Shown piece by piece: positions 3,001 through 52,566 of a DNA stretch of 64,000 nt (the stretch's first letter is position 1; every line of letters begins with the position of its first letter). The stretch lies in assembly GCA_016235065.1 (NCBI GenBank), contig JACRMB010000004.1, positions 3,629 to 67,628 on the forward strand. The letters run 5' to 3'. The DNA comes from Actinomycetota bacterium. Lineage in GTDB: Bacteria > Actinomycetota > Thermoleophilia > BMS3ABIN01. The notes under the pieces are model-generated. The model was not told the DNA's origin. It did no database searches and saw nothing but the letters and a program-made list of their open reading frames with translations. The position numbers and the translations under genes were made by a program.

Positions 3001-6000
3001 CGCTAGCGCCTTCGGTCACCGCCCTGTCGCCGACAGGCGCGCTGGCTTCACCCACTACGACCATATCCGCAAGTCTCTCAGACTCGGGTACCGGTATTAA
3101 TTCAGCAACCGCCCAAGTCTATGTCGAAGGCGGCACCGTCGGAACCTGCAACCGGACGGCCACGTCCGTCAGCTGCCAGGTATCCGGGATGGTCGACGGT
3201 ATCCACAACTACACGGTCACGGTCTCGGATATGGCTGGAAATACTGGAAGCGCTTCAGCCAGTCTGAATATCGATACCGTGGCTCCCGCGGTCTCCAATA
3301 TCCAGCCCTCGGGCACCATAACGACCTCGAGCGCGACCATAAGCGCCTACTATAGCGATACCGGCTCCGGGCTCAACATCTCGACCGCGGTAGTAACGCT
3401 CGACGGCACAGCGCTGACTGGCTGTACCCGTACTTTCTCCGGAGTCAGTTGCCCAGCCACGGGGCTCACGGACGGTATCCATAATATAAGCGTCAGTGTC
3501 CAGGACAATATCACCAACATGGGCACGGGCACCGGTTCGTTCACGGTAACGCTGCCTCAGGCTGACACGACAGCGCCTACTGTTACCAACGTGCAGCCAG
3601 GCGGCACTATTGCGACAGGTACAGCCACAATCAGTGCTTACTACAGCGATTCCGGATCGGGCATCAATAGTGCCACTGCAGCAGTGACTCTCGACGGGAC
3701 CCCGATTACTGGTTGCGTCGCATCTGCCAGCGCGGTCAGCTGCGATGCCATCGGCCTCTCCGAGGGCGCGCACAATATCACAGTCTCCGTCGCCGACAAT
3801 GCCGGGAACACTGGCACTGGCAGCGGCAGCTTCGTGGTCGACAGCGTGATACCGGTGGTAAGCAATGTGATGCCCAACCAGGCCACTAACTCCACGAGCG
3901 CTACGGTCAGCGCCTACTTCAACGACGGTTCCGGCACCGGCATCGACCCCGCTTCGGTGAGAGTCTATCTGGACGACGTACTGATGGCTGGTTGCGCGGT
4001 AAGCACTTCCGACGTCAGCTGCGCTGTCAGCGGTCTCACTGATGGATATCACTCCATCAGGGTGGATGTTCTGGACAATGCCGGCAACAGCGGCCACGGA
4101 ACTGACTCATTCCTGGTAGATACGACTATCCCGGTCATAAGCGACATCCAGCCGAGCGGCACTATCAGTACATCCGCCGCCACAGTAAGCGCGTATCTGA
4201 GCGACTCATGGAGTGACGTAAACGATACGAGCGTAGTTGTAATGCTCGATTCTGTCGCGATAACAGGATGTACGGCCACGAATACTTCCGTCAGCTGCCC
4301 GGTCACCGGCCTGGTTGACGGTTACCATACAATCGACATCTCCGTAGCTGATAACACCGGCAATACCGGTACAGGCACCGGAAGCTTCACGGTGGACACC
4401 ACAGTGCCGGACACGACGCCACCAGTGATCAATAATGTGATGCCGTCTGGCACGATTACGACGACAGGCGCCAACGTCAGCGCTTACCTCAGCGACACTG
4501 GCAGCGGCATCAACACCGCCTCGGTGAGCGTCCAGGTAGACTCCGTAGCCCTCACCGGATGCACGGTATCGGCCTCCAGCGTAAGCTGCGCCGCCACAGG
4601 CCTGGCCGAAGGCGCGCACAACATCAGCGTCACCGCCGCCGACAACGCCGGCAACTCAAGCACCAGCACCGGCAGCTTCACGGTAGACTCCATGAGCCCG
4701 ACCGTAAGCGGCCTGGCTCCGACAGGTCTCGTCAACTTGGCCGACCAGACAATAACCGCCAGCTACTCCGACTCGGGCACCGGCATTGACAGCTCCACCG
4801 CCCAGGTCTATATGGACTCCGGCGTGCTCAGCGGCTGCACAGCAACCGCAACCTCGATCAGCTGCCCGGCTGCAGGACTAGCCGAGGGAGCCCACAGCTA
4901 CACAGTGAGCGTCAGGGACACGGCCGGCAATACCGGCTCGGCTTCGGCCAGCTTCACGGTGGACTCGATCCGCCCGACGGCAGGCAATTTCGCTCCCCAG
5001 GGCTATCTGACCACGACCAGCGCCACGATCACTGCATATATCAGCGATAGCGGCAGTGGAATCGACACAGCGGCTGTCTGGGCTGCGGTCGACGGGGTCC
5101 AGCTCAGCGGCTGTACCGTAACCACATCATCAATATCCTGTCCGGCCACCGGGCTTGCGGAAGGCCATCACATCGTCAGCGTCCGCGTGCAGGATATGGC
5201 CAACAACGGCGACATATACTTCTGGGGTATAGATGTTGACTCCCTGGCGCCGTCCGTGACCGGCCTTTCACCTTATGGGTCGCTCGCTTCACCGATAACA
5301 CGGATATCAGCCAGCTTAAGTGACTCCGGTTCGGGAATAGACAGCGCTACCGCCCAGGTCTATGTAGAAGGCGGTACGGTCTCGAACTGCAGCGCGAGTG
5401 CCACTTCCATCAGTTGTGATGTAGCCGGCATGGCTGACGGCGTCCATTACTACACGGTCAGCGTCAGCGACCTGGCCGGCAACACCGGCACAGCCTCAGC
5501 CAGCCTGCATGTTGACACTGTGGCGCCGACAGTCAGCAATATCCAGCCCAGCGGTACTATCACAACCGATAACGCGACTATCAGCGCCTACTACAGTGAC
5601 GCCGGCGTCGGGCTCAACATATCGACCGCCGTGGTCACCCTGGACGGAACCGCGCTGACCGGCTGCACCCGGACTTTCACCGGAGTCAGCTGCCCGGCCA
5701 CCGGACTTGCCGATGGCGTGCATAACATCACTGTCAGCGTCCTTGATAACATCACCAACGTGGGCACCGGCACCGGCTCGTTCACCGTCGCCATTCCTCA
5801 GGCAGACACGACGGCGCCTTCGGTGACCAATGTCCAGCCAACGGGCACGGTAACGACGGGCACGGCTACGATCAGCGCTGATTACAGCGACGCCGGCAGC
5901 GGCATCAACGCTGCCACAGCCAGGGTATACCTGGACGGAACAGCGCTGACAGGCTGCACGGCTACCGCGACATCGGTTAGCTGTCCAGCATCGGGCCTGA

Positions 6001-12594: not shown

Positions 12595-13395
12595 CTAAAC
12601 CGGCCGCATCGTCCCGAAGAACATCTGCCACGCCAGCGCCGACTTGGCCACCAGGCTGAGGATGATATACACCCTCTCACCGTAAAGGTAGTCTTTCCAC
12701 GGCCCGATCTGCCGGTACTGCAGCCACTGGTTCACGGCGAAGATGTTGAAGAAGATGAACAGCGAAACCATGATGCCGTAGACGAAGTCAGGTACTGATG
12801 TATCCGGGTACTGGTTGGACCCGATCGTGTAGAGCGCTATCACCACCCAGGGGATGATCCCCGCGAAGCAGCCGAAATAGAACGCGGTCCAGCTTGTCTT
12901 TTCCGTAGTCTGGTTATGCAGCTCCATCATGTAGCCAAAGAAGATCATGCAGGCGTTGATGCAGAAGATGAGGATCAGGCTCGAAAGGTCGTAGACGCCC
13001 ACCAACATGGCGATCAGCACTATCATGATCGACGAGCTCAGCGAATACTCCCACCAGCGCGCCTTGTTGATGTGCTGCTTGAGGTTTGCCACATACCAGT
13101 TGAATCCGAACGAAGCCAGGATGAAGTGCGCCATCGCCGACAGCAGCAGGAAGATGGCAACCATGGGTGCGATGCGCAGGGTATAAGGGTCCTGAAGATT
13201 CTGGACCAGTCTGCCGGAGGAGACATCGAATTTCAGGTAGATAGTCGACACCGGCAGTGAGAAGCTGGTGCTCAGCCACAGCATCAGCACACCCTGGCCC
13301 AGGTGCAGGCAGCCCATGATGAAGTTGAAGCGGCGAAGGCCGCCGTAGGTTATTTTACTGGCGGGCGCGGCGTCTGTAGCTAAGGCGATATTCAT
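12595..13395 (-). CDS. heliorhodopsin (7-TM retinal protein)
   Basis: Strong match to heliorhodopsin 48C12 as recalled: WWEYSLSSSIMIVLIA (TM3 with Glu counterion), FGCFAGIIPWV, VPDFVYGIMVSLFIFFN, GERVYIILSLVAKSALAWQMF (TM7 with retinal-binding Lys); GGGAGG RBS 5 nt upstream of ATG. Confidence 0.85.
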   Translation of the reverse strand: MNIALATDAAPASKITYGGLRRFNFIMGCLHLGQGVLMLWLSTSFSLPVSTIYLKFDVSSGRLVQNLQDPYTLRIAPMVAIFLLLSAMAHFILASFGFNWYVANLKQHINKARWWEYSLSSSIMIVLIAMLVGVYDLSSLILIFCINACMIFFGYMMELHNQTTEKTSWTAFYFGCFAGIIPWVVIALYTIGSNQYPDTSVPDFVYGIMVSLFIFFNIFAVNQWLQYRQIGPWKDYLYGERVYIILSLVAKSALAWQMFFGTMRPV

Positions 13396-13552: not shown

Positions 13553-14869
13553 TCACTTCACCTCACCCATGAACATGGGGATATTGATCCGCTGCCGCTC
13601 CGTCTCGCCCTTGAACAGCTCCTCCCGCCGCGCCGGCACGTCGCCGCGGTCGCCCAGGTGCTGCGCGAATTTATTAGCAGTGAAGCTCGAGCCCAAAAAC
13701 AGCGTGTGTTTGCCGTATTTCACCCGCACGCCGTCCACCGCCTCATAGACTCGCGCCAGCCGTTCGATGCGCGCCGTCACGCCGAAGAGGTCCGGCTGAG
13801 TGATGACGTCCTCGGTGAGCTTCAACAGAACCACGCCGGTCGACCGGTACAGCTTCGTCGGCTTGAACAGCCGCTGGAACACCGGCTCCAGCGCCGCCAT
13901 GATCTCATGGGGGAAGGCGGTGGGCCGCGAGAACTTCACCTTGGCGCCGACGCCGTGGAAATCCTGGGTCTTGAGGAAGCAGACCGCCTCCCGCGCCGCC
14001 AGCTTGTAGCGCCGCGCCTTCATGGTGGCGTTCTCCACGTTCTTGGATAGTTGGGCGAAGACGAACTCCGGGTCGCTGGACGGCGGCGTGAAGGTCTTCA
14101 CTTTCTGGATGGTGTAATAGCTCTCTTTTTCCTCGGTGTCGAGCCCCATGACCATGCGCCCGTTCAGCTCCTGCCAGGTCTCGTAGAATGGCTTGCTGAA
14201 GTTCGCTTTCACCCAGTCCTCGTCGCGCCGGGCGAAGTCGAGCGCCGTGGTGATGCCGAACTTGGCGAGATAGGCGGTGGTCTGCGGCCCGATGCCCCAG
14301 ACCTTCTCCACCGGCATGCCGCGCAGGAACTCGTGGATGTCGCGCCCGGGGATCACCGTCAGCCCCGAAGGCTTCTGCCATTTGGAGGCGATCTTGGCGA
14401 TGGTCTTGTTGGGCGCGAGCCCGGTGGAGAAGGTGAAACCGAAGGCCTCGTCCAGCTCCTCCTTCATCGCCCTGGCGATGGCCCGGTAGCCCATGCGCAG
14501 CGGCCGCTGCATGCCGGTGATATCGGCGAAGCACTCGTCGATGCCGTATTCCTCCACATCGGGCGTGTAGCGCCGCACTATGGCGAAGAAGCGTTTCGAC
14601 AGCAGGCTGTAAGTCTCGTAATCGGAGGGAAGGAAGACCGCGTCGGGGCAGAGCTTACGCACCTCGGAGAGCCGCATGGCTCGCACGACGCCACGGGCCT
14701 TGGCCTCGTAGCTCATGGAGGCGACGATGTTGCGCTCCTTGCCGGTGATCACAGGGATACCCTGGAGCTTGGGGTTCCGTGATTGCTCACACGACGCAAA
14801 AAAAGCGTCGGCGTCGATGTGGATGACCGCCCGGGGGAAGGAGCGGATGGAGAGGGGGTTGTCACCCAT
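13553..14869 (-). CDS. Y-family (UmuC/DinB-like) translesion DNA polymerase
   Basis: VIHIDADAFFASCEQSRNP (catalytic Asp motif), IDECFADITG, NIVASMSYEAKARGV; start 1 nt after the lexA stop, so translationally coupled. Confidence 0.85.
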   Translation of the reverse strand: MGDNPLSIRSFPRAVIHIDADAFFASCEQSRNPKLQGIPVITGKERNIVASMSYEAKARGVVRAMRLSEVRKLCPDAVFLPSDYETYSLLSKRFFAIVRRYTPDVEEYGIDECFADITGMQRPLRMGYRAIARAMKEELDEAFGFTFSTGLAPNKTIAKIASKWQKPSGLTVIPGRDIHEFLRGMPVEKVWGIGPQTTAYLAKFGITTALDFARRDEDWVKANFSKPFYETWQELNGRMVMGLDTEEKESYYTIQKVKTFTPPSSDPEFVFAQLSKNVENATMKARRYKLAAREAVCFLKTQDFHGVGAKVKFSRPTAFPHEIMAALEPVFQRLFKPTKLYRSTGVVLLKLTEDVITQPDLFGVTARIERLARVYEAVDGVRVKYGKHTLFLGSSFTANKFAQHLGDRGDVPARREELFKGETERQRINIPMFMGEVK

Positions 14870-14870
14870 C

Positions 14871-15443
14871 TCAATACTTCCGAATGACCGCTCGCACGAT
14901 CGCCGCGACCCGCAGCTCGTTCTCCGGCGTGATCGGCCCGAACCTGCTATTGGCCGCTTCCAGCCAGACTTTGCCGCCGCGTTTGCGGTAATACTTCATG
15001 GTCCACTCGCCGTCGACCTCGGCGATGATGATGTCGCCGTCCTTCTCGGTGACGCCCCGTTCCACCAGCACCATGTCGCCGGGCATGATGCCGGCGTCGA
15101 CCATCGACTCGCCCTGCACCTTGAGCAGGTAGGTCTGCTCCGGGCGCTTGATGAGGAACTCCTCCAGGCTCATGGTGTCCAGCAGCTCCTCCTCGGCGGG
15201 AGAGGGCCAGCCGGCCTCGACCGTGCCGAGCTGGGGCACGGCGTTGAAGCGCCGCCCCGGCAGCAGTTTGCCGGTCTCGTCGCGCTCCACGAAGCCCTGT
15301 TCCACCAGCCGGTTCACCAGTTTGTAGGTGGTTCCCTTTGAGCGCAGGCCAGCCGCCCGGGCGATCTCGGCATGGCTGGGCATGCGCCGGTTGGCCCGGT
15401 AGAAGGCGATGATCTTATCCAGATGTTTTGGTGTCTTTTTCAT
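14871..15443 (-). CDS. lexA: LexA repressor (S24 peptidase)
   Basis: N-terminal wHTH (HAEIARAAGLRSKGTTYKLVNRLVEQGFVER), cleavage-site region VEAG, catalytic Ser in VQGESMVDAGI and Lys in WTMKYY. Confidence 0.9.
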   Translation of the reverse strand: MKKTPKHLDKIIAFYRANRRMPSHAEIARAAGLRSKGTTYKLVNRLVEQGFVERDETGKLLPGRRFNAVPQLGTVEAGWPSPAEEELLDTMSLEEFLIKRPEQTYLLKVQGESMVDAGIMPGDMVLVERGVTEKDGDIIIAEVDGEWTMKYYRKRGGKVWLEAANSRFGPITPENELRVAAIVRAVIRKY

Positions 15444-29988: not shown

Positions 29989-31239
29989 TCAACCTGAAGG
30001 CGCCACCGCCGGCGTCGCCGGCTGTACCGGCAATATCTGGCCGCAGGTGGGACTGGTCGGCTTGCCGTTGAAACGATCGTCCAGCCACATGGTCACTGTC
30101 GGTCCCGAGACTTTGGCCGCTACCTGGTGGCCGATGCCGCCGAACCACATCGTGGTCAGGTTTGAGCCGGCATCGCATGAGCGTTGAACATAAAGCATCG
30201 TGGTGTTCGGCAGCACTACCTGGTCGTCCAGGCCCTGGGCGATCAGCAGCGGCTGGTCCGGCGGTAGCACCGCAGGGGTCTCACTAGTGGAAGCGCTGTA
30301 CCATGCCGGAAACGTGACCGGATTGTTCTGGAAGAAGTCCTGCCCGAGCTCTTTCCTTATCAGGGCTTCGTCTCCACCCTTCGCCAGGCAATCATTGGCC
30401 ATGGACTCATACCTTTTCTGCCCCGACGAAGATATGACGTCGTCGACGGGGATATCCGGATAGACGCCGGGCCAGGCGACCAGGACCTCGGGTCCGATGA
30501 CCCAGCCTACAACCGACTGGTATTGCTCGGAAAACAGCGTCGCCAGTTCGGCGGCAGGTGCGGCGGCAGCCGTCGCGACAAGGTCCAGCTCGGGAGCGTA
30601 AGACTCTGATTCCATGGCAGTGAAGAGGGCCGCGTGGCCTCCCTGGGAGTGCCCCCAGACGGCATATTCCTTTCCCGCATACGCGGCTTCGACCCGCTGA
30701 GCAGCCCGGACGGAATTGATGACATCCCTGGCTTCGTCACGGCCGACCAGATAGCGCTCGGTGCCCGGCGTACCGAGGCCGGCGTAATCGGTGGCGGCTA
30801 CCACCCAGCCGCGCGCCAGCATCTCCGAAAGCCAGCTCATGTCCCCGATCGGATCCTCGGTACGCGACGGGGCGCAGGCGTCGCCCATCCCCACGGTCGG
30901 ATGAGCCCAGGCGACTACTTTGCGTTTTTCCGCCGGTGCCGGCCCCTCCGGGTAGAAGACCATGCCGGACGAGGCGGTCATCGTGCCGTCAGACTGCTGG
31001 CTGAGATAAAGGACACGCACTCCCTGTCCGCCGCCGGGAATCGAAACATCCAGCGGTTCCTGGCTGATGATCGTGCCGGGAGCTCCGGCAGGCAGGGGTG
31101 ATGGCGGGGCATAGAAGGATTCGAGAGTTTTTTGCCTCTCGTCCTCCTTGATATCTTCACGGCCGACCTTTATCGCTAACGCGAACAGGGCAATGAGTAT
31201 CACTACTCCAACAGCGGTCAATAAACGGTGTCTTGCCAC
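29989..31239 (-). CDS. secreted/membrane-anchored alpha/beta-hydrolase (lipase-like)
   Basis: GHSQGG nucleophile motif; N-terminal signal-anchor; GTG at 31239 (GAAGG RBS) preferred because the ORF-track start at 31335 overlaps the kinase gene. Confidence 0.6.
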   Translation of the reverse strand: MARHRLLTAVGVVILIALFALAIKVGREDIKEDERQKTLESFYAPPSPLPAGAPGTIISQEPLDVSIPGGGQGVRVLYLSQQSDGTMTASSGMVFYPEGPAPAEKRKVVAWAHPTVGMGDACAPSRTEDPIGDMSWLSEMLARGWVVAATDYAGLGTPGTERYLVGRDEARDVINSVRAAQRVEAAYAGKEYAVWGHSQGGHAALFTAMESESYAPELDLVATAAAAPAAELATLFSEQYQSVVGWVIGPEVLVAWPGVYPDIPVDDVISSSGQKRYESMANDCLAKGGDEALIRKELGQDFFQNNPVTFPAWYSASTSETPAVLPPDQPLLIAQGLDDQVVLPNTTMLYVQRSCDAGSNLTTMWFGGIGHQVAAKVSGPTVTMWLDDRFNGKPTSPTCGQILPVQPATPAVAPSG

Positions 31240-31310
31240 GAAGCCAGCCTTCGGTTTTGCGTTCAAGTCATTCCTCCTGAATCGATTCTGATGACAAAGC
31301 AGGCAGACAG

Positions 31311-34094
31311 CTAACTTTCGTTCAGCAGCTCCCATATTTTTTTCAGGATGATCTCCCTCGAATAAGGCTTCTGCAGGAAAGGATATTCGCGCTCATGGAT
31401 GTTTTCCTGCCATTCGATCTCGCTGTAGCCGCTGGCGAGGAGTACGCGCAGGCCGGCTTTTTTCTTCAGCAGCCGGTCGACGAGCATGATCCCGTTTTCC
31501 TGAGGCAGCACCACATCGCTGAAGACAAGATCAAAATCTCCCCGGGCTTCGTCAAATAGCGACAACGCTTCCTCGGCGCTGGCAGCGGTCGTGACGGCAT
31601 ACCCTGCCTTTACCAGGATCCTTTCAGCCAGCTTCCTGACAGTATCTTCATCCTCGACCAGCAGGATCTTTTCTCCCCGTCCCGTCAACTGCGCGGGAGG
31701 GGTCACTTCCTTCACAGTGTCTTCTTCCGTCAAGGGGATGACCGGGAGAAAGAAATAAAGGGTGGAGCCGCGACCAGGATCGCTCTCAACATCTACCCAG
31801 CCTTCATGGTGGGAGATTATGCCGTAGACCACGGAAAGGCCCAGGCCGGTGCCCTGGGCTGCGCCCTTGGTGGTGAAGAATGGCTCATACATATGTGCGA
31901 TCGTCTCGGCGTCCATGCCGCTACCCTCGTCCCTGACGGAGATGCGGACGAATTCTCCTTCCCGGGAATCGGCGTGGGCTTCGGCGTACTTTCTGTCCAC
32001 CGGGAAGTTCTCTGATCTGATCTCGATCTTCCCGCCGTCAGGCATGGCATCCCTGGCATTGACTGCCAGGTTCATGATCACCTGCTGGATATGTGATTTG
32101 TCTGCGCTGACTGTCTTGAGATCCGGTGCGAGGTCGGTAGTCAACATGTAGCGTTCGCCAATGAGCCTCCTGAGCATCTTCATGGCGTCGGTTATCAGTG
32201 CGTTCAGGTTTGTCGGCGCCGGATGCATGGCTTCCTGACGGCTGAAGATCAGCAGCTGCCGGGCCAGGTTGGCGGCGCTCTCGGAAGCCTTGCGTGACTC
32301 CAGCAGTTGCCCATATTCAGCGCTCTCCTCGGGAAGCTCAGTCAACACCAGGTCCGTATAGCCCTCTATGACTGTGAGGAAGTTATTGATGTCATGGGCG
32401 ATCCCTCCCGCCAGCCTGCCGACGGCCTCCATCTTCTGGGCCTGGAGCAGCTGCGCGCGCAGGCTTCTCCGTTCTACCTCAGACTTTTTGCGGTCAGTAA
32501 CCTCCCTGACCGCCTCTATCCCGCCGATTATCTCTCCCTCGGAGTTCCTCAGCGGCGATGCGGTTATTTCGAAATAATGATTACCGTCAGGGAAGACTAC
32601 GGTCCTTTCAGTAAAGTGGATCTTTCCGTCGGCCATCGCCATTGCGACCGGACACCCTTCACAGGCCCCATCCCGCTTTTCATATCCGTTATAGCAATAT
32701 TCCCCTACGTGATCACCGATAAAATCCCGGTGGACCTGGTTCTGGAACAGGACTTTCAGGTCGGTATCCTGGATGCTTATCCCGTCACCGATCCCCTCGA
32801 TGATCGCCCGGTTCTTCTCCTTTTCGTCCTCAGCGAGCTTAAGTGCTTCCTTAAGGGATGCTTCAGCAGTTATGCGTTCAGTGATGTTCTGGGCCGTGCC
32901 GCGCAGCCCTGTGATCGCGCCGGTGGTGTCATGTTTGACTTCACCGCGGGCTACTATCCATCGGCGAGTTGCGTCGGGCTGGGAAAGTTCCAGATCGAGC
33001 TCATAAGGCTCGCCGGTCTTCATGGTCTCTTCGACCGAAGCATTGAGCCGGGCGGCGCTTTCCGGCGTATAGATCCTGAGATGTTCCTTGTAGTTGGGCG
33101 AAGGCTTCGCCGGATCGAAGTTCAGTATGTGATACAGCTCCTCTGACCAGAAAGTGGCGTCGGTAACGGCATCCCAGTCCCAGTTGCCGATCTGCGCGAT
33201 CTGCTGCGCCTCCTTGAATTGCTGCTCGCTTTCAGAGAGCGTTTCTTCCGCATGCCTGCGCTCGGTCAGCTCGACCTGCAGCTGCCTGTTTGCATCCTGC
33301 AGTTCTCCTGTCCTCTCTTTGACACGGACCTCGAGGTCATCCCTTGACCGGCGAAGTTCCAGCTCACCGCGTCTTTGCCTGACAGCCCCCAGGGAGATTC
33401 CAGCGCAACCGGTGAGCCAGATAAGCGAATATATGATGCCGGCCTGCTTCTTCTGAGAATCCGCATGGGCCGCAACCTGAGAGAAGGGTATCGAGATGCT
33501 GACGCCGCCGCGGATGTCACCCTCCTGATAGCCCTGTCCGGCATGGCATTTCAGACAGGGTTTTTCGGTGACCATGGGCCGCATCAGGCGCAGATAGGGC
33601 TGGCCGTCGATCTGCTCGATCGAAGTGACTTCAGTCTGCCCCTCATCGAATGCCCTGAGGGCGGTCGTTTCCCACTGGTCTGCTGCATTCCCGGGACGGA
33701 TCGGATTCAGGCTGGTGATATGGCCAAAAACATCGCCTTCGGCAGCGGCAAGTTCGTTTACCTGCCGGGTCATGTAAGCGGGATTCATGAGTGTCAGCTG
33801 CTTGCCGGATGGTGTGACGATATCCCGCTCAGGTATTTGAGTAAGATATGGATTAGAAGGAGTCTGCGCTGAAACCGGAACATAGACTCCGCCGTGCGAA
33901 GCGTTCCAGCGGCGATAGAGCACGTCCTTTTCCCAGACCACGCTGGCCCGGGTGACGGCTTCGTCTTCGGCCTGCTGATCGATCTCGCTGGCGCTCAAAA
34001 AATAGATGACCACCATTATCGCCGTCCAGCAGACGGCAAGCAGCGTCGCATACCGTGCGGCGCGGGTATATCTATTCCTTATTGTTTTCAGCAT
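31311..34094 (-). CDS. hybrid sensor histidine kinase with periplasmic CxxCH (heme-c) sensor domain, PAS domains, HisKA, HATPase_c and C-terminal receiver
   Basis: TM1, ~150-aa periplasmic domain containing KPCLKCHAGQ (CxxCH at 33543..33557), TM2, PAS repeats, AHDINNFLTVIEGYTDL (H-box), GTGLGLSVVYGII (G2 box), receiver ILLVEDEDTVRKL...DLVFSDVVLP. Confidence 0.85.
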   Translation of the reverse strand: MLKTIRNRYTRAARYATLLAVCWTAIMVVIYFLSASEIDQQAEDEAVTRASVVWEKDVLYRRWNASHGGVYVPVSAQTPSNPYLTQIPERDIVTPSGKQLTLMNPAYMTRQVNELAAAEGDVFGHITSLNPIRPGNAADQWETTALRAFDEGQTEVTSIEQIDGQPYLRLMRPMVTEKPCLKCHAGQGYQEGDIRGGVSISIPFSQVAAHADSQKKQAGIIYSLIWLTGCAGISLGAVRQRRGELELRRSRDDLEVRVKERTGELQDANRQLQVELTERRHAEETLSESEQQFKEAQQIAQIGNWDWDAVTDATFWSEELYHILNFDPAKPSPNYKEHLRIYTPESAARLNASVEETMKTGEPYELDLELSQPDATRRWIVARGEVKHDTTGAITGLRGTAQNITERITAEASLKEALKLAEDEKEKNRAIIEGIGDGISIQDTDLKVLFQNQVHRDFIGDHVGEYCYNGYEKRDGACEGCPVAMAMADGKIHFTERTVVFPDGNHYFEITASPLRNSEGEIIGGIEAVREVTDRKKSEVERRSLRAQLLQAQKMEAVGRLAGGIAHDINNFLTVIEGYTDLVLTELPEESAEYGQLLESRKASESAANLARQLLIFSRQEAMHPAPTNLNALITDAMKMLRRLIGERYMLTTDLAPDLKTVSADKSHIQQVIMNLAVNARDAMPDGGKIEIRSENFPVDRKYAEAHADSREGEFVRISVRDEGSGMDAETIAHMYEPFFTTKGAAQGTGLGLSVVYGIISHHEGWVDVESDPGRGSTLYFFLPVIPLTEEDTVKEVTPPAQLTGRGEKILLVEDEDTVRKLAERILVKAGYAVTTAASAEEALSLFDEARGDFDLVFSDVVLPQENGIMLVDRLLKKKAGLRVLLASGYSEIEWQENIHEREYPFLQKPYSREIILKKIWELLNES

Positions 34095-34307
34095 TCTGAG
34101 AGTACCTTCCCAATTCACTCTTTAGCTAAAACAGGAGTTATTCCTGTTGAACGTAACTTCATGCGGCTACCAGTTCGCCTTTGAGTATCACCGGCGTTGA
34201 AGGGCGTCAAACTTTTGTGTTGAACTGTGATGAGATGATATAGAGTGACGGAATGCGTCATGCTCGCCTGGTCATTTGTCCAGGTCGTGATTCCAGGATG
34301 GGAAAAA

Positions 34308-35183
34308 ATGGGAATAATCGAGACCAAAAGCCTGACCAAGTATTACGGCAGTGCCAAAGGCATAGAAGATGTCACCCTCAGCGTCGAGAAGGGCGAGATA
34401 CTGGGCTTCATCGGCCCCAACGGCGCCGGCAAGTCAACGACTATCCGCCTGCTGCTCTCCCTGATATATCCGACCAGCGGCAGCGCCACCATCTTCGGCA
34501 AAGACATCATCAAGTACGGTCCCGAGATCAAGCGTGAGATCGGCTACATGCCGTCCGAAGTGTTCTATTACGAGAACATGCGGGTCAGGGAGCTGCTCGA
34601 CTACTCCGCCAGTTTTTACGGCAAGGACTGCTCGAAGCGCATCAACGAACTGTCCGGCCTCCTGAAACTGGATCTGAACAAGAAGATAGACGACCTTTCC
34701 TACGGCAACAAGAAGAAAGTCGGCATAGTCCAGGGCCTGCTGCACGACCCGCAGCTTATCATCCTCGACGAGCCGACTGGCGGCCTGGATCCCCTGATGC
34801 AGAAGAACTTCTTCGCTCTGCTCAGGGAGGAGAACAGAGCGGGCAAGACTATCTTCTTCTCGTCGCATATCCTCAGCGAGGTCCAGAAGATCTGCAACCG
34901 TGTAGCTATCATCAGGGACGGTGCGGTGATCAACATCGAATCCATGGAGCACCTGATCCAGAACAACTACAAGCGGGTCCACCTGACAACGAGGCAGAAG
35001 CCTGACAGAAAGCTGTTCGATTTTCCAGGCGTGAGCGACCTGCTGGTTGAGAAGAACGTGGTCAGCTTCCTCTACAAGGGCGATGTGAATACGATCTCCA
35101 GAACCATCGCGCAGATCGACCTGGTCGATTTCATGGTCGGCGAACCGGACCTGGAAGAGATATTCATGCACTACTACCAGTGA
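34308..35183 (+). CDS. ABC transporter ATP-binding protein (ABC-2 type)
   Basis: Walker A GPNGAGKST, signature LSYGNKKKVG, Walker B LIILDEPTGGLD; ATG at 34308 preferred over the longer ORF-track start. Confidence 0.85.
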   Translation: MGIIETKSLTKYYGSAKGIEDVTLSVEKGEILGFIGPNGAGKSTTIRLLLSLIYPTSGSATIFGKDIIKYGPEIKREIGYMPSEVFYYENMRVRELLDYSASFYGKDCSKRINELSGLLKLDLNKKIDDLSYGNKKKVGIVQGLLHDPQLIILDEPTGGLDPLMQKNFFALLREENRAGKTIFFSSHILSEVQKICNRVAIIRDGAVINIESMEHLIQNNYKRVHLTTRQKPDRKLFDFPGVSDLLVEKNVVSFLYKGDVNTISRTIAQIDLVDFMVGEPDLEEIFMHYYQ

Positions 35184-41832: not shown

Positions 41833-44800
41833 ATGATAGCAAAGACATCTATTCGCTGTGTTACTGCGGCAGTGCTGTTCATGTTTCTTGTTCTGCTGTA
41901 CGTATCCAGCGTAATGGCAGCGCCCGGGCCGGATATCAGCGGGCTTGTTTCTCCCACACACGCTGATGAGAACACCTGGTACTCGAACAACGATCCTTCG
42001 TTTTCCTGGAGCTCCGCGTTTGAAACCGGCCTGGCAGGTTCGTATTCGACGCCGGGCCATTCATATGATGTCGCTGTTTCGGGCATATATGCATATATTG
42101 CGGATGGGGGTTACGGACTTCGTATAATCAACATCTCCAATCCGGCAAGCCCGACGCTCGCAGGCTTTTACGACACGCCCGCCGCCGCCAGCGGTCTGGA
42201 CATCTCCGGCAGCTATGCTTATGTGGCCGACGATACTAGCCTGCAGATAATCAACATCTCCAACCCGGCCAGCCCGACTCTGGCTGGATCACTTGCGATG
42301 TCCAGCGCCGTCGACGTTGCCGTTTCAGGCGACTTCGCTTACGTCGCCAGCTATGGCTACGGATTGAGAGTCATAGATATTTCGAACCCGGCCAGCCCGG
42401 CGCTCAGGGGAACATTCAATACGCCGGGCATCGCCGTAGGAGTCGCTCTTTCGGGAAATCATGCGTATGTGGCCGACAACAACTCCGGCCTACAGATAAT
42501 CGATGTCACCGATCCGGACAATCCGGCGTTCGCGGGTGCATACAACCCAGGCTATTCATTCTTAGCGGCCAGAGTTTCCGGGACGCTGGCTTATATGGCC
42601 GCAGGCAGTTCGGGCCTTGTCATCGTCGACATCTCTGATCCGGCTAATACGTCACTGGCTGGAGCATACGATACACCGGGCAGTGCTCTCGATGTTGCTG
42701 TTTCAGGAATCTATGCATATATGGCGGATTATTCCTCCGGCCTGCAGATCCTGGATATCTCAAACCCGGCAAATCCGACGCTGGCTGGCTCCTACGCCAC
42801 GTTGCCGGCCAGTTATGCAGAAGACGTCGATGTCTCAGGCAGTTTTGCATACCTGAGCGACTATACCGTCGGCCTGACGATCGTTGAAGCGTCTACGGCC
42901 ACCGGTTATTCCTATATATTCGACCAGAATCCGGCAACGGTACCGGATACTGTTTCCGAGGGGGCCGATACCAGCAAGGCCTACACTGATACCGGCGATG
43001 GCATCTGGTATTTTCATGTAAGGGCAGTGGATCCCCTGGGTAACTGGGGCGCGGCCAGCCATCGTAAAGCGCAGATCGACACCGGAGCACCGGTTATCAC
43101 CAACATCCTGCCTTCGGGCACCATAACCACCGGCGATCCCGCTACCGTACAGGCAGACCTGAGCGACAGCATCTCCGGCATCGACGTCGCCACGGGTTCC
43201 GTCTCAGTTGACGGTACTGAACTGACAGGCTGCGTCGTCAACAGCTCGCTGGTGAGCTGCGATACCAGCTCGGCCGGTTTCGCTGAGGGGGCACACAGCA
43301 TATCGGTGACCGCCTATGACAACGCGGGTAACCCCAATACGGCCACCGGATCCTTCTCAGTCGACTCCATCGCTCCCTCTGTGACCGGCATTCAGCCTGG
43401 TGGCACGATCAACACCACTTCGACGACCATAAGCGCTGATTATAGTGATTCCGGTTCCGGCATCGACTCCGCGACTGCGACAGTCTACCTGGATTCAGTG
43501 CTTGTTACAGGATGCACGGCTGATGCAGTTAGCGTCAGCTGCCCGGTCACGGGGCTGTCTGTAGGAGCCCATTCGATCACAGTGTACGTCAGTGACAATG
43601 CGGGCAACACCGGATCGGGGTCAGGCAGCTTCACCATGACCCTGAGCCGGGACTACTACTGGGGACGTTATGACGGCACCAACAGTCTGGACTGGATCCT
43701 GCTGGGGAATCCGCCTGGTTCATCAGGGAACCTGACATTCGATCTTTATATCAGCACGGATGAGCAGTCACTGGCGCCATTCGTCATACCCGGCTATGGC
43801 GTGGGTGAGGTGCCGCCGGGCCAGTCGATAACTCCGATGTTCAACATGCCACCGGCGGGCCCGGTCAAAGCCTTGTCCACTACGGGCGGTCAGGCTATCG
43901 CTTCCCAGCGCATCCTCTGGAAAAGCAGGTATTTCGAAGAGGTGCCGGGGATCGAGGCAGGAAGCTTGTCCAGCCATTATTACTGGACCTGGTATGACCA
44001 GTTCTCACCAGGATTCTCCCAGGATGAGATCATCGTCGTCAATACCAACACGGAGCCGGTCATGGTGGAGATCTCCTTTACTGATGTGGCTCATCCACCG
44101 GCGGCCGATCCTGTGGACGACACTTTCCCGTTGCAGCCAGCTGGGACTCCCGGAGGCACGGATACCCTGAGACAGAGTTACCCGGGCAAGATGGGCGGCC
44201 CTGTGGAAGTCAAGGCATGGCTGGCTGGCGGTACATACGAGAGCGATCCCAGGAATGTGGTAGCAACCCAGCGGGTGATCAAGGACCAGGGTGCCGCTAC
44301 GGAGCATCTAAACGAGGTCCCCGGCATCCCGGCAGATGATCTCACCAGCGATTACTGGTGGACCTGGTACGACTGGAACAGCTCGGGAGCTTCCAACTGG
44401 GTACTGGTCTCAAATCCCGGCGCTGAAGCAGTCCATGTGGATATCTCATTCAGGAACGACCAGACAGGGACGATTGAGACCCTGGATGCCGACCTGCCCC
44501 CGGCAGCTCCCGGTGTCGCCCCATGGACGCCCAGCTTCGCCGGCAAAAAAGGTGGGCCTGTTGAAGTCAGGGCGTCGCTCGCCAGCGACCATAACCAGCC
44601 GCGTGACGTCATCGCCTCCCAACGATCGGTCTGGACCACATTCTTCGAAGAGGTGCCGGGCTTCGCGGCCTCGCAGCTATCGCCCCGCTATCTATGGACC
44701 TGGTATGACTGGAACAGCGCCGGCTCACAGAACTGGGTGATGGTAGCCAATCCGACCGCGGATACGGTTCACTCCGAGATCTCCTTCAAGGACTCGACTA

Positions 44801-45021
44801 CCGGAGAGACCAGGGGGGACGCCAATGTGATCCTCCAGCCGGCCGGCTCCAACGGGTCCATCAGGTACCTGCGCTTCGACGGATACATGGGAGGGCCCGT
44901 GGAAGTAAAGGCCTACCTGGAAGGCAGCGATTACGTAACCAGTCCGCGTGATGTCATAGCCTCCCAGCGGGTGCTATGGAACGGACAGTTCAATGAGGTG
45001 CTGGGAACTCTGCTGGAGTAG
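41833..45021 (+). CDS. secreted surface protein: LVIVD-repeat beta-propeller, Ig-like domains, and five copies of the shared C-terminal repeat module
   Basis: Signal anchor; repeats GLRIINISNPASP/GLVIVDISDPANT (LVIVD family); two two-Cys Ig-like domains; C-terminal repeats (about 43645..45018) with WTWYD, WVLVSNP, GGPVEV and ASQRVLW. Confidence 0.8.
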   Translation: MIAKTSIRCVTAAVLFMFLVLLYVSSVMAAPGPDISGLVSPTHADENTWYSNNDPSFSWSSAFETGLAGSYSTPGHSYDVAVSGIYAYIADGGYGLRIINISNPASPTLAGFYDTPAAASGLDISGSYAYVADDTSLQIINISNPASPTLAGSLAMSSAVDVAVSGDFAYVASYGYGLRVIDISNPASPALRGTFNTPGIAVGVALSGNHAYVADNNSGLQIIDVTDPDNPAFAGAYNPGYSFLAARVSGTLAYMAAGSSGLVIVDISDPANTSLAGAYDTPGSALDVAVSGIYAYMADYSSGLQILDISNPANPTLAGSYATLPASYAEDVDVSGSFAYLSDYTVGLTIVEASTATGYSYIFDQNPATVPDTVSEGADTSKAYTDTGDGIWYFHVRAVDPLGNWGAASHRKAQIDTGAPVITNILPSGTITTGDPATVQADLSDSISGIDVATGSVSVDGTELTGCVVNSSLVSCDTSSAGFAEGAHSISVTAYDNAGNPNTATGSFSVDSIAPSVTGIQPGGTINTTSTTISADYSDSGSGIDSATATVYLDSVLVTGCTADAVSVSCPVTGLSVGAHSITVYVSDNAGNTGSGSGSFTMTLSRDYYWGRYDGTNSLDWILLGNPPGSSGNLTFDLYISTDEQSLAPFVIPGYGVGEVPPGQSITPMFNMPPAGPVKALSTTGGQAIASQRILWKSRYFEEVPGIEAGSLSSHYYWTWYDQFSPGFSQDEIIVVNTNTEPVMVEISFTDVAHPPAADPVDDTFPLQPAGTPGGTDTLRQSYPGKMGGPVEVKAWLAGGTYESDPRNVVATQRVIKDQGAATEHLNEVPGIPADDLTSDYWWTWYDWNSSGASNWVLVSNPGAEAVHVDISFRNDQTGTIETLDADLPPAAPGVAPWTPSFAGKKGGPVEVRASLASDHNQPRDVIASQRSVWTTFFEEVPGFAASQLSPRYLWTWYDWNSAGSQNWVMVANPTADTVHSEISFKDSTTGETRGDANVILQPAGSNGSIRYLRFDGYMGGPVEVKAYLEGSDYVTSPRDVIASQRVLWNGQFNEVLGTLLE

Positions 45022-45397: not shown

Positions 45398-45613
45398 ATG
45401 ATCAGCAGGCTTCTGGATATCTGCATTGGTGCTATGTTGGTCGCTCTGGTGGCACTGACTGCGCAGCTCGCGTATCTCTACATCCAGCCCGCGGAACTCC
45501 AGGCCGAGCAACTCGCACAGAGGACTTCATCGCATCCAGTGGTTAACGGTCAGGTGATCAGCGAGATGCCTACGGCTGAGTGCATGGTCTGTCACGCCGG
45601 CAGTCTGCCCTAG
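45398..45613 (+). CDS. small TM protein ending in a CxxCH motif (possible N-terminal fragment of a NapC/NrfH-like cytochrome)
   Basis: One TM helix then ...TAECMVCHAGSLP-stop; resembles the membrane anchor plus first heme site of NapC/NirT-type cytochromes but terminates immediately. Confidence 0.2.
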   Translation: MISRLLDICIGAMLVALVALTAQLAYLYIQPAELQAEQLAQRTSSHPVVNGQVISEMPTAECMVCHAGSLP

Positions 45614-45637: not shown

Positions 45638-46186
45638 GTGAGGTGCGTCATTAAGTCGAGCTGCATCAATGCTATTTCCGGATTATTCCTGCTTGTGGCC
45701 CTGCTCTTTGTGCTTGCACTAGCCGGTGAGGCCCAGGCGCAGACGGCGCCTGTGTGCGGCTCCGCCGGCACGCCCACTCCCGGGAGCCTGCATGCCTCGT
45801 TACTGCGGGAACCCCTGTATAACAGCGAAGGCAATTTTCTCAGCATTTCTTGGGAAGGCGCCATTCCACCTATGGAAATATGGATAGATGACGCGCTTTC
45901 CGAAATCACATACGTAAGCAATGGCGGCTCTGGACAGGCCCGAAACGAGCCCGAAACTGCGACGCACGTGGTGGCATTCATCACGCAGGGATACGCGCCA
46001 GTGTGCATAGAGGTGGCTGTCAGTCCTTCAGTGACCCAGGACGCCTATCCCGCAGCGCAGCAGGGCGAGTCTGTGCTACCGTCGACAGGTTTTGACACCA
46101 TCATGTTGCTCGCAGGCCTGTTGACATCCTTGGCTGGTGTCTTTCTGCTGCACCAACGAGCGCAATCACGAGAAAACCCTTTCTAG
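45638..46186 (+). CDS. small secreted protein with C-terminal LPSTG cell-wall sorting signal
   Basis: Signal peptide; C-terminus LPSTGFDTIMLLAGLLTSLAGVFLLHQRAQSR (LPxTG, hydrophobic span, basic tail). Confidence 0.6.
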   Translation: MRCVIKSSCINAISGLFLLVALLFVLALAGEAQAQTAPVCGSAGTPTPGSLHASLLREPLYNSEGNFLSISWEGAIPPMEIWIDDALSEITYVSNGGSGQARNEPETATHVVAFITQGYAPVCIEVAVSPSVTQDAYPAAQQGESVLPSTGFDTIMLLAGLLTSLAGVFLLHQRAQSRENPF

Positions 46187-46416: not shown

Positions 46417-49400
46417 TCACAAACCTGCACCGACCAACTCGTTGAAGTAGCCTTTCCACAGTACCCTCTGCGAAGCTAGCACATTTGCGGGATTCTCTTT
46501 TGATGACCCGTTCCATTGCCAGGCTCTGACCTGAACGGGTCCGCCGATGATGCCGGGGAAGCGCGGCGTTACTCGCTGGCCGGGCGCCAATACGCCGTGG
46601 TTGGTCGAGTAATAAGGATCTGCGGGATTGGCTGGATCGAGTTTGCCAGGCACTGAGATCTCGTAATAAATAGCGCTAGCGTTCGGGTTTGCGACTAGCA
46701 CCCAGTTGAGCGAGCCGGCCGATTTTTCGTCATACCAAGTCCAGTTCGCGGTTGGTTTAAGGCTATTTAGCGGCACGCCGGCAGTCTCCTCGTAAGAAGG
46801 CCCATAGATCACGATTTGGGAAGTATATATGTTAGCCGGACTGTAACAAGCCTCAGTGGTGTCAAAACAGGCCTTGACCTCAATCGGGCCGTCCATCAAT
46901 TTTTGCGGTGAGCTATCCCACCAAATGGTCGTGCCCGATGGAACGCCGTCGCTACTGGCCATCAGTTGACCGTGCAGGTAAAGAAAAAGATAAACAGGCT
47001 CGGAGTTGGGATTGCCGACAATGACTAGGTCGTTTGCGTTTTGGCTGTCATACCATGGCCACTCGTATTCGTTGCTCAATTTCGAGGCCGCGATGCCGGC
47101 CATTTCGTTAAACGAGTCACCCATCAGGATACGTTCCGAGGCGACGACCTTGCGAGCATCCGCAGAATTATTGGGCGAGCCACCGACCCGGTAGGCTTTG
47201 ACCTCAACTGGTCCACCGCTGTAGGGCCAGGTTGGCGTCCAGGTATCACCCGGCTGGATCACATGCCTATTAACGTAGATATCCGGCACAGGTATTTTGT
47301 TGATGTCTTCAACATTTCGTATAGAAATGTCAACCTCGACAGCTTCCCCATTTTCGGCCGGATTTGCAACCAGAACCCATTCAGAAGTCATGCTGCCGAG
47401 GTAGACCGGCCAATAATAGTGCGTGTCGAGATCATCGTATGAAGTGGACCAGACTTCCTCGAAAGAGTTTCCGAACAGCGAACGCTCGCTCGAGATGCCG
47501 TTACCATACTGGGACATGATCTTGATCGGGCCGCCGAGTCTTTTGTCGTACGAGCGGAACTGCGTTTCCCCATCATTGACACCGATGCCTTGTTCAAGAG
47601 AGTTGGTCTTCATCCAGAAGTCGACGATATTCGTTCCACTGCCAGGCATTTGCGCTGCTAGCAGCCACGTATGACCATAGATATTGTCATACCAGGGGAA
47701 GTAATAATGCATCGGGGTCGAGTATGACCAGTCAGCGGTCTGGGTATTGCCTACAACGTCGCTCACTTCAAGGTGCACGTTTTGAATGCCACAATTAGGA
47801 TTGAAATAAGAGACTTGGTCAACAGAAATCGTTGCCCGAGAAGTAACGACGATTCCATTCACAGTCAGCTTGACTGAATTCGGATTGACTCCCGACTTCG
47901 AGTCAGTATAAGAAGCATTGATTATTGCCGTGCTGGCCCAAACGTTTCCACTCGGGCTCGTTCCTCCTATTTCAGGTTTTGTCGTTTCGACTTCGAAGCT
48001 GCCATTAAGGGTCGCGCTGTTGCCAGCTTTGTCTCGCCCGACTATCAAGAAATCATGGTGTCCGTCTGAAAGGCCCGACGCCTGGCACCTCAACAGAGAT
48101 GAATCAGAGATATCGCAATTGGTAAGCGGCTGGCTGCTACCATCCAGATAAACCGCGCTTGCGGAGCTGTCTGGCCCCGATTGCTGATCGCTCAAAGTTG
48201 CACCGATTACGGTCGCGCTGCCGCTCCAGACTGGAGGAATGGCTTCGGAAATCGCAGGGGGCGCGAGGTCGACGCCGAATGGTGAGTCAGACAGCCCCGG
48301 CGTTCCGTCATTAGTCTCATACGAGATCGTTAGAGAGTGCCAGCCTGCAGAAAAGTCTGAAGTTGAGCAGCTGAGATGAGCGCCGACGAGCGAGCAGCCA
48401 GGCGCTGAGGTATCGTCGATATAAACGGCTACACTGCTCGAATCGATACCCGAACCGTTATCCGTTAGGTCCGCTTCAATCGCTTGGCTGGTCGTACGGA
48501 GCCAGCCTGAAGGGGAGATGTTTTGCGCTTGGAGAACCAGTGGTCCCCATGATGGGGTGATTCGTTCATAAAAAGGATGGCCCAAATCCGCAATGTTGTA
48601 ACAGCCTCCACCCGTTGCTCTTGCTGTGCAAAGAGTGCAGTTGTTGGAGTTATCTTTTTGGATAAATGCAATACTGGTACCATCCGGTGACCACGCGGGT
48701 TGACTATAAAATGGGGACCATGTCCATGTTCGTGTAATCACGGGTTGTGGTTGTGTGCCATCGGGCTTCATCGTATAGATTCCCGAGTCATTTGCATTGA
48801 AATAAACGTAACAGGCAATTTTGGAAGAATCAGGCGCCCAGCTTGGCATCGAATTGAAACTGGCTGGCCATCCATAGACGTTAAGAGCGGTCTGGTTTCC
48901 ACCATCGGGATTAATAAAAAAGATTCCATAAGTACCACTGTTGGCGTTGAAGGCGATCCTGGAACCGTCTGGTGACCAAGCAGGATTCTCGTAGGTACCC
49001 GAATTATTAGTCAGTTGATTCAGCTCACTTCCGTCGGAATTCATTACGTATAGCTTCTGAACACCGAAGCCAACGATTCCAAACGTCCTCGTAAAAGCTA
49101 TGCGGGAACCGTCGGGCGACCAGGTGGGGCTGTCATCGTAATTCGAGCCGAAGGTCAGCTGACTTATGCTCATATCCGATAGTCTGAGAACGTAAATCTT
49201 ATTAGTACCATTTCTGTTGCTGGAAAAAGCTATCTTGCTGCCGTCAGGCGAGAAGGCGGGTGACTGTTCGACCGCGGGGCTATTGGTGATACGAGTTAGG
49301 CCGCTGCGGTCAGGATTTACAGTGTATATCTCAGCATTGCCATCCCTATAAGAAACAAAAGCAATCTTGCCGTTTGGTTTTACAGTGGCATCCGCTGAGG

Positions 49401-49542
49401 ACGACATGGCCAGGATGGCGATTACTGAGAAGAGGAAGATAAACGCAAATGAGGATTTTTGGCGTGCGCTTTCAACGAACCCACCCATTGCGCCTCCAGA
49501 ATCTGGCATATCTGAGAGAAGCTTAATTGAAACGATTGCCAA
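46417..49542 (-). CDS. secreted surface protein: TolB-like beta-propeller, two-Cys Ig-like domains, and four copies of the shared C-terminal repeat module
   Basis: N-terminal signal; GKIAFVSYRDGNAEIYTVNPDRSG-type PD40 blades; Ig-like domains with GC...C pattern; C-terminal repeats (about 46420..47715) with FPWYD, WVLVANP and ASQRVLW. Confidence 0.8.
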   Translation of the reverse strand: MAIVSIKLLSDMPDSGGAMGGFVESARQKSSFAFIFLFSVIAILAMSSSADATVKPNGKIAFVSYRDGNAEIYTVNPDRSGLTRITNSPAVEQSPAFSPDGSKIAFSSNRNGTNKIYVLRLSDMSISQLTFGSNYDDSPTWSPDGSRIAFTRTFGIVGFGVQKLYVMNSDGSELNQLTNNSGTYENPAWSPDGSRIAFNANSGTYGIFFINPDGGNQTALNVYGWPASFNSMPSWAPDSSKIACYVYFNANDSGIYTMKPDGTQPQPVITRTWTWSPFYSQPAWSPDGTSIAFIQKDNSNNCTLCTARATGGGCYNIADLGHPFYERITPSWGPLVLQAQNISPSGWLRTTSQAIEADLTDNGSGIDSSSVAVYIDDTSAPGCSLVGAHLSCSTSDFSAGWHSLTISYETNDGTPGLSDSPFGVDLAPPAISEAIPPVWSGSATVIGATLSDQQSGPDSSASAVYLDGSSQPLTNCDISDSSLLRCQASGLSDGHHDFLIVGRDKAGNSATLNGSFEVETTKPEIGGTSPSGNVWASTAIINASYTDSKSGVNPNSVKLTVNGIVVTSRATISVDQVSYFNPNCGIQNVHLEVSDVVGNTQTADWSYSTPMHYYFPWYDNIYGHTWLLAAQMPGSGTNIVDFWMKTNSLEQGIGVNDGETQFRSYDKRLGGPIKIMSQYGNGISSERSLFGNSFEEVWSTSYDDLDTHYYWPVYLGSMTSEWVLVANPAENGEAVEVDISIRNVEDINKIPVPDIYVNRHVIQPGDTWTPTWPYSGGPVEVKAYRVGGSPNNSADARKVVASERILMGDSFNEMAGIAASKLSNEYEWPWYDSQNANDLVIVGNPNSEPVYLFLYLHGQLMASSDGVPSGTTIWWDSSPQKLMDGPIEVKACFDTTEACYSPANIYTSQIVIYGPSYEETAGVPLNSLKPTANWTWYDEKSAGSLNWVLVANPNASAIYYEISVPGKLDPANPADPYYSTNHGVLAPGQRVTPRFPGIIGGPVQVRAWQWNGSSKENPANVLASQRVLWKGYFNELVGAGL

Positions 49543-52293: not shown

Positions 52294-52566
52294 ATGGAAG
52301 AGCTAGTTTGTCCACATTGTCATAAGGTCAGCTATAGTGCTTCAGCTAGGGCGTTCTCGCCCTGTCCCCACTGCAAGTTCCGGTTTGCGATCTCCGAGGA
52401 TAACGGCCACAAGTATCTCGTTATCGACCGCCAGCTGGCCCATCTCCTCCAGAACTATTCAGAGTCTGTGGAGAACCATGAAGATATCGAAGTGATCGTC
52501 GACCGGAGGATATCCAACCGGCCCTTCGATGGTGTAGACAGCCGCAAGGTCACGACGCCGAACTAG
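52294..52566 (+). CDS. small zinc-ribbon protein
   Basis: CPHC...(16 aa)...CPHC pairs at the N-terminus. Confidence 0.4.
   Translation: MEELVCPHCHKVSYSASARAFSPCPHCKFRFAISEDNGHKYLVIDRQLAHLLQNYSESVENHEDIEVIVDRRISNRPFDGVDSRKVTTPN

Follow-up and report, generated by a model that had tools for sequence, protein, structure and literature searches.

The window considered here, 64,000 nucleotides of contig JACRMB010000004.1 (assembly GCA_016235065.1, labelled Actinomycetota), encodes on its minus strand a hybrid sensor histidine kinase in which a first transmembrane helix (TM1) is followed by a 180-aa ectodomain with a CxxCH haem-c motif, a second transmembrane helix (TM2), a coiled coil, two PAS domains, and HisKA, HATPase and receiver domains. 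A second gene, 11 kb away, encodes a 71-aa protein that also carries a CxxCH motif. At its longest, the open reading frame (ORF) of the kinase spans 31311..34118 and begins with GTG. An ATG lies eight codons further in, at 34094, with GGGAAGG about 10 nt upstream, and this ATG is the start of the 100% identical 927-aa NCBI protein MBI5870373.1, which is named "DUF3365 domain-containing protein" and originates from an 83.8-kb contig of an Actinomycetota metagenome-assembled genome. Kinase residue numbers follow the ATG; in GTG numbering the CxxCH motif occupies residues 188-192.

The sequence-only reading of this DNA had suggested a DUF3365/Tll0287-like haem-PAS family for the kinase sensor and had proposed a Pfam scan of residues ~45..205. 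The scan identified PF11845 on aa 40-203 (E 8.9e-23, 81.8 bits against a gathering cut-off of 24.1), with profile positions 2-144 of 144 aligned, in agreement with the suggested family. The PAS label requires revision, as DUF3365/Tll0287 has been redefined by Deshpande, Xing, Gumerov, Crane and Zhulin as "sCache_heme", a family with a Cache rather than a PAS fold and an inserted helix that bears the CxxCH motif (bioRxiv 10.64898/2026.02.01.703092). The motif occurs in 99-99.4% of ~5,000 and ~20,000 sCache_heme sequences; about half of the family members stand alone, and the others are fused to histidine kinases (a common architecture), methyl-accepting chemotaxis proteins (MCPs), GGDEF/EAL domains or cyclases (bioRxiv 10.64898/2026.02.01.703092). 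Because the family has been described, histidine kinase fusion is listed as common and the protein is labelled DUF3365 at NCBI, this type of sensor is already known. Judged by its sequence, the domain in the window is a new and uncharacterised member of the sCache_heme family.

A bare CxxCH motif is weak evidence, since the six-frame, stop-to-stop ORFs of the window (58% GC) contain nine, the majority of them in frames that are non-coding. The weight therefore rests on conservation and domain identity. The sequence-only reading had placed the motif at 33543..33557, and C180-L-K-C183-H184 maps there exactly. A search with the N-terminal 246 aa returned 1348 proteins, and among the best 120 of these (47-60% identity), PF11845 and a CxxCH aligned with that of the query were present in 120/120. 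In a full-length search, the sensor was present in 109 of the 120 matches examined, C-C-H was aligned in all 109, and many metagenomic proteins exhibited the identical full architecture. The haem assignment had been made to depend on conservation of the Cys and His residues in orthologues, and CxxCH was kept in 229/229. The subfamily alignment (56 sequences, ~48% identity) contains 28 invariant columns and the conserved blocks YRRW, NPAYMTRQ, GHITSL, RxMRP, CLKCHAxQGY and GDIRGGxS. C180 and C183 are the only cysteines of the ectodomain (aa 38-217), and Met108, His125 and Met171 are kept in 101, 100 and 100 of the 109 full-length homologues, respectively.

The AlphaFold2 model, which covers aa 1-262 and uses the subfamily alignment, has a mean predicted local distance difference test score (pLDDT) of 93.8 and a predicted template modelling score (pTM) of 0.83. 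It contains, in order, a long N-terminal helix (TM1 and the Cache N-helix), a beta-sheet with helices, the CxxCH helix and an exit helix running through TM2. The CxxCH helix (aa 178-187) lies between strands 165-175 and 194-203, matching the family description, and the sensor is accordingly modelled as a single-Cache fold with a CxxCH helix before the last strand. Searches of the PDB by sequence, using either the single sensor or a 56-sequence profile, returned nothing significant (a marginal match to 3B42, E 1.6, covered the CxxCH segment), and the relation to solved structures is therefore shown by fold comparison. Foldseek placed Tll0287 (5B82) first (E 4.7e-6), and further matches were the sCache domains WalK, TlpB, the 8PY0 formate chemoreceptor and KinD as well as the Geobacter haem-c sensors 3B42/3B47. 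The core of the earlier interpretation, a hybrid histidine kinase fed by a DUF3365/Tll0287-family haem-c sensor, is supported.

The sensor domain is predicted to face outward because the N-terminus is K/R-rich (five K/R and zero D/E) and TM2 is followed by the likewise K/R-rich RQRRGELELRRSR, in line with the positive-inside rule. The ectodomain of ~180 aa is larger than the ~150 aa previously suggested and does not end in the motif, as CxxCH lies ~34 residues before TM2. Moreover, "periplasmic" should be replaced by "extracytoplasmic", as the host seems to be an actinobacterium of monoderm type. Several markers in the window agree with a monoderm envelope and with the Actinomycetota label at NCBI, namely a LexA-like repressor with a Y-family polymerase, a TetR-MMPL pair, a heliorhodopsin and a protein with an LPSTG sortase signal. 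The last of these (182 aa, 45638..46186, plus strand, no Pfam match) combines a signal peptide with a C-terminal LPSTG, a hydrophobic tail and basic residues, and this sortase signal indicates a monoderm (Gram-positive type) host.

On the cytoplasmic side, HisKA, HATPase_c and Response_reg each score above their own Pfam cut-offs, which makes this a hybrid HisKA-class kinase, and the catalytic residues are intact (H567 in HDINN, the N-box at 675, DEGSG at 722 and GTGLG at 748). The cytoplasmic PAS domains and the fused receiver anticipated from the translation were both found by the Pfam scan, and no HAMP domain was matched anywhere in the 927-aa kinase. Orthology to CckA (NCBIfam top matches, JGI names) was rejected, as NF046020 and NF046026 reach 360.8 and 319.4 bits against cut-offs of 1000; the match comprises the kinase-receiver core alone and reflects likeness in kinase subclass. 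An NCBIfam match of NahK/ErcS type covers aa 719-919 only (70 bits against a cut-off of 400), and the FixL match covers the kinase core alone, far under its cut-off. A haem-b sensor of nitric oxide (NO) of the H-NOX or NosP type was also rejected, with no such Pfam match in the kinase. The features of both genes are listed in Table 1.

Table 1. Positions of the kinase gene, its domains and motifs, and the 71-aa gene in the window.
Feature	Coordinates	Strand	Basis
Hybrid sensor histidine kinase gene, 927 aa (NCBI MBI5870373.1)	31311..34094	minus	ORF, identical NCBI protein, domain scan
TM1, ~aa 17-37, preceded by K/R-rich, predicted cytoplasmic N-terminus	33984..34046	minus	Hydropathy, charge counts; helical in AlphaFold2 model
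Predicted extracytoplasmic sCache_heme sensor domain (PF11845, Tll0287-like/DUF3365), aa 38-217	33444..33983	minus	
Predicted haem-c attachment motif C180-L-K-C183-H184, short helix aa 178-187 between last two beta-strands	33543..33557	minus	Conservation, helix position in AlphaFold2 model
TM2, ~aa 218-238	33381..33443	minus	Hydropathy; continuous helix 205-261 in AlphaFold2 model
Charged helical linker, ~aa 239-305, no HAMP	33180..33380	minus	No HAMP match; sensor/chassis junction ~aa 250-275
PAS domain 1 (PAS_3)	32892..33155	minus	Pfam E 1.7e-9
PAS domain 2 (PAS_4/PAS_9)	32487..32795	minus	Pfam E 5.5e-12
HisKA dimerisation/phospho-acceptor domain, His567 (H-D-I-N-N)	32229..32420	minus	Pfam, H-box motif
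HATPase_c, N/G1/G2 boxes intact	31740..32102	minus	Pfam E 1.2e-22; motifs at aa 675, 722, 748
C-terminal receiver: E814-D815, phospho-acceptor D860, K909	31335..31667	minus	Pfam E 5.7e-17, motifs
71-aa gene, N-terminal membrane anchor and short tail with CxxCH	45398..45613	plus	Shine-Dalgarno sequence, homologues, codon differences, AlphaFold2 model

With signalling modules (PAS, HisKA, HATPase_c and the receiver, REC) fused to a sensor that lacks an axial Cys, the kinase has the architecture of Cluster 2 of the family. Assignment to the Cys/His class typified by Tll0287 (Cluster 1), whose members stand alone or are fused to cytochromes, was rejected, as the ectodomain offers no candidate axial Cys and is part of a 927-aa kinase. 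Tll0287 from Thermosynechococcus elongatus (PDB 5B82) shares the Pfam family and a CxxCH at the equal structural position, but it is soluble and stands alone, its axial ligands are Cys and His, its potential is low and a redox role has been proposed for it. The stand-alone, Cys/His-ligated sCache_heme protein of P. putida binds NO weakly (bioRxiv 10.64898/2026.02.01.703092). The Cache_heme-HAMP NO receptor of P. azotoformans shares several features with the kinase: an extracytoplasmic single-Cache fold, the CxxCH helix insertion, two flanking transmembrane helices, the absence of an axial Cys and fusion to a signalling output. This protein releases NO slowly (koff ~6e-4 s^-1), forms mixed 5-/6-coordinate nitrosyls and no stable O2 complex, and behaves as an NO rather than an O2 sensor (bioRxiv 10.64898/2026.02.01.703092). 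NO binding to this receptor changes cytoplasmic phosphorylation, an output across the membrane (10.64898/2026.05.25.727664). Differences remain, as the output of the kinase is a coiled coil-PAS-PAS-HisKA-HATPase-REC chain without HAMP or an associated Ser/Thr kinase, and it comes from a probable monoderm actinobacterium, not from a proteobacterium.

The Geobacter sulfurreducens sensors GSU0582/GSU0935 (3B47/3B42) also position a haem-c domain between two transmembrane helices, use the CxxCH His as the proximal ligand, may have a labile Met as the distal ligand (a possibility shared with the kinase) and match the kinase sensor model structurally. However, they feed a HAMP and MCP output for chemotaxis, their crystal structures are domain-swapped dimers, and identity to the kinase sensor is only ~16-18% over ~100 aligned residues. 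In these proteins His144 is proximal, and a labile Met60 is displaced by NO or CO (PMC8396549). Finally, H-NOX/HnoK, NosP/NahK and FixL follow the same logic, in that a diatomic gas on haem controls a histidine kinase, often a hybrid one, although their haem b is non-covalent and cytoplasmic and their folds are unrelated or true PAS.

We consider it quite probable that an outward-facing sCache_heme haem-c sensor drives the hybrid kinase, with NO as the most likely ligand or a redox change as the input. After export of the ectodomain, a cytochrome-c maturation system would attach haem to Cys180 and Cys183, and His184 would, from family membership, be the proximal iron ligand. Stable Cys/His ligation is impossible because the ectodomain has no further Cys, and since an axial Cys is absent the sixth iron position would probably be labile, occupied either by water or by a near-invariant residue (Met108, His125 or Met171). 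A diatomic ligand at the ferrous haem (most likely NO), or a change in iron oxidation, could then alter ligation, and the resulting conformational change may be passed through TM2 and the HAMP-less helical linker to the two cytoplasmic PAS domains. These would set the rate of autophosphorylation at His567, from which the phosphoryl group could move to Asp860 of the fused receiver and on to a response regulator or Hpt protein whose gene lies elsewhere. The NO or gas reading is given an edge over redox sensing because the kinase is one of the signalling-fused members without an axial Cys. The redox or gas (O2/NO/CO) input proposed in the sequence-only reading fits the biochemistry of the family, which points to NO or redox and not to O2 (bioRxiv 10.64898/2026.02.01.703092; PMC8396549).

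Several points weigh against this proposal. The subfamily is remote from characterised members, to the extent that its profile misses 5B82 and 3B42 by sequence alone, and the family biochemistry comes from members outside it. Specificity for NO is an extrapolation from one protein, which is proteobacterial and has a HAMP output. No genes for cytochrome-c maturation, NO metabolism, an Hpt protein or a response regulator were found in the 64-kb window, whose large ORFs were scanned with Pfam and whose gap ORFs were read by eye. The family is enriched in Gracilicutes and reported as "rare or entirely absent" in Bacillota, Actinomycetota and Chloroflexota, and thus as rare in the phylum of the host (bioRxiv 10.64898/2026.02.01.703092). 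The Geobacter members, moreover, are read as redox sensors with a labile Met (PMC8396549), and the subfamily retains the near-invariant Met108 at a spacing similar to that of the Geobacter Met.

The last point leads to an alternative that we regard as rather unlikely, in which the haem is the same and the signal is a redox potential or an oxidant. Following the proposals for Geobacter GSU0582/GSU0935 and Desulfovibrio DcrA, a distal Met (Met108 being the candidate) would leave the oxidised iron, and the low-spin to high-spin transition would drive the kinase. Met108 lies in the NPAYMTRQ block and is kept in 120/121 and 101/109 homologues, although it is replaced by A, I or V in 8/109. It precedes His184 by 76 residues, and Met60 of GSU0935 precedes His144 by 84 (PMC8396549). 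The presence of 3B42/3B47 among the structural matches of the sensor model is also consistent with redox sensing, as is the derivation of the closest sensor relatives from anaerobe-rich lineages (Thermodesulfobacteriota, Desulfobaccales, Nitrospirota and KSB1). However, the only signalling-fused member tested for gas selectivity behaved as an NO sensor, and the Geobacter domains are themselves reversible binders of NO and CO (PMC8396549), so that the redox and NO readings are not mutually exclusive.

It is highly improbable that no haem is present in the host and that the domain is an ordinary small-molecule Cache or an inert relic (through lack of maturation or recent acquisition of a non-functional module): the reported rarity or absence of the family in Actinomycetota, the lack of maturation genes in the window and the different closest relatives of sensor and kinase chassis would fit such a view, but all family-defining residues are retained, including the 28 invariant columns, the reading frame and kinase residues are intact, a second conserved CxxCH protein 11 kb away fits a host able to produce c-type haem proteins, and actinobacteria normally possess System II (ResB/ResC-type) maturation for cytochrome c1/QcrC.

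If the preferred NO reading is true, kinases of this type could signal the presence of denitrification intermediates, or of nitrosative stress, at the cell surface. The host being a probable Gram-positive actinobacterium, an extracellular gas or redox sensor with covalent haem would operate there without a periplasm. The value of the kinase is otherwise confirmatory, as it adds a deeply conserved haem-c Cache kinase subfamily to a family with few biochemically studied proteins. Residual interest lies in the actinobacterial host, in an apparent module swap and, above all, in the 71-aa CxxCH protein.

The sensor and the remainder of the kinase have different closest relatives. For the cytoplasmic 650 aa, the nine closest relatives (41-50% identity) carry other inputs and lack PF11845 in 9/9 cases, and two of them are labelled Thermoleophilia. 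Conversely, the best sensor matches exhibit 53-60% identity in the sensor and only 30-43% over the kinase portion; where a lineage is named, it is Thermodesulfobacteriota, KSB1, Nitrospirota or a similar one. Alignment with the sensor relatives ends at ~aa 235-250, whereas alignment with the sensorless chassis relatives, Thermoleophilia included, begins at ~aa 275. The switch-over at ~aa 250-275 thus falls within the helical linker and represents an apparent recombination junction. This pattern in the alignments is suggestive of module shuffling.

The sequence-only reading had also noted a CxxCH in a tiny ORF at 45398..45613, and this ORF proved to be a conserved gene with the motif at 45581..45595. 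It is preceded by a strong Shine-Dalgarno sequence (GGAGGA), and the encoded 71-aa protein has an N-terminal hydrophobic anchor, a CxxCH five residues from its C-terminus and no Pfam match. An exhaustive HMMER search of 1.84e9 representatives returned six full-length relatives only (P0242-P0247), which are 68-77 aa long and align end to end. Invariant in this family are H46-P47, G51-Q52, C62-x-x-C65-H66 and a C-terminal L-P. Compared with a 94%-identical copy at another locus (L016; 88% nucleotide identity), the gene differs in 22 codons, 18 of them synonymously and 4 non-synonymously, and clear purifying selection is evident from this ratio. An AlphaFold2 model (pLDDT 78) contains a transmembrane helix (2-29), a short helix, a loop and a CxxCH helix (59-66). 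The 71-aa protein is therefore a real, rare and undescribed small protein, an example of the small-gene families missing from annotation, and a more novel item than the kinase. Its sequence makes it a candidate minimal c-type haem protein with ~35 extracytoplasmic residues and possible His46/His66 ligation; if it binds haem, it would rank among the smallest natural c-type haem proteins and would matter more. There are no conserved gene neighbours among loci L016-L020, and as the two genes are also 11 kb apart, no functional link between the 71-aa gene and the kinase is seen. A broader scenario, in which a Gracilicutes-type haem-c Cache sensor has been placed on a Thermoleophilia-type PAS-kinase chassis and the 71-aa protein founds a new family of minimal mono-haem c-type cytochromes, is possible but offered only tentatively. 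If the chimera is real, a monoderm actinobacterium would possess an extracellular NO or redox sensor of a kind that is reportedly nearly absent from its phylum.

Upstream of the kinase and divergent from it lies an ABC-2 type exporter, with an ATPase at 34245..35183 and two permeases extending to 36808; next come two poorly annotated ORFs and, encoded on the other strand, a GT4 glycosyltransferase. In the downstream direction, the kinase gene is followed on its own strand by the gene for a LIP-family lipase/hydrolase with a membrane anchor (29989..31335), which, read from its first ATG, shares 25 nt with the end of the kinase gene; a PD40 protein and the TetR-MMPL pair lie beyond it. Among the large window ORFs, a Pfam scan identified no gene for a response regulator, an Hpt protein, a cytochrome or cytochrome-c maturation, and none resembling these was seen among the gap ORFs, which were read by eye only. 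A scan around the kinase gene returned 0 promoter-like sites, and terminator-like sites at the frequency of shuffled sequence. An orthologue of the same architecture was found in none of 185,579 species-representative genomes; 15 loci share the PAS/kinase part only. As these loci lack the sensor, synteny can neither support nor refute regulation of the exporter, and control of the adjacent ABC-2 exporter and glycosyltransferase genes by the kinase is speculative.

Two other CxxCH motifs in the window were rejected as haem sites. A CLLCH at 31291..31305 (minus strand), the third in-frame CxxCH, lies at the N-terminus of the lipase ORF and is unlikely to bind haem because it is on the K/R-rich, predicted cytoplasmic side of the membrane anchor and may precede the true start. 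The CPHCH of a 90-aa ORF at 52294..52566 (plus strand; MEELVCPHCH...CPHC) resembles a zinc ribbon and has no signal peptide. The latter ORF is situated between a gene for an Lcl_C-domain protein and two Metallophos phosphoesterase genes.

Further genes in the window are of separate interest. The heliorhodopsin gene (12595..13395, minus strand; PF18761, E 9e-103) adjoins a DUF520 gene and the LexA-like/Y-family polymerase pair at 13553..15443. A 2353-aa secreted protein encoded at 27..7088 (plus strand) contains five Big_13 Ig-like domains, a NosD/beta-helix region and CE2_N/TIG/PKD-like domains. Two proteins of >1000 aa, one with LVIVD repeats and Big_13 (41833..45021, plus strand) and the other with PD40 repeats (46417..49542, minus strand), have in their C-terminal halves common modules of ~110 aa with the motifs YYWTWYD, NWVLVANP, GGPVEVKA and ASQRV, as read from the translations. 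These modules are not covered by Pfam and may represent an undescribed repeat domain.

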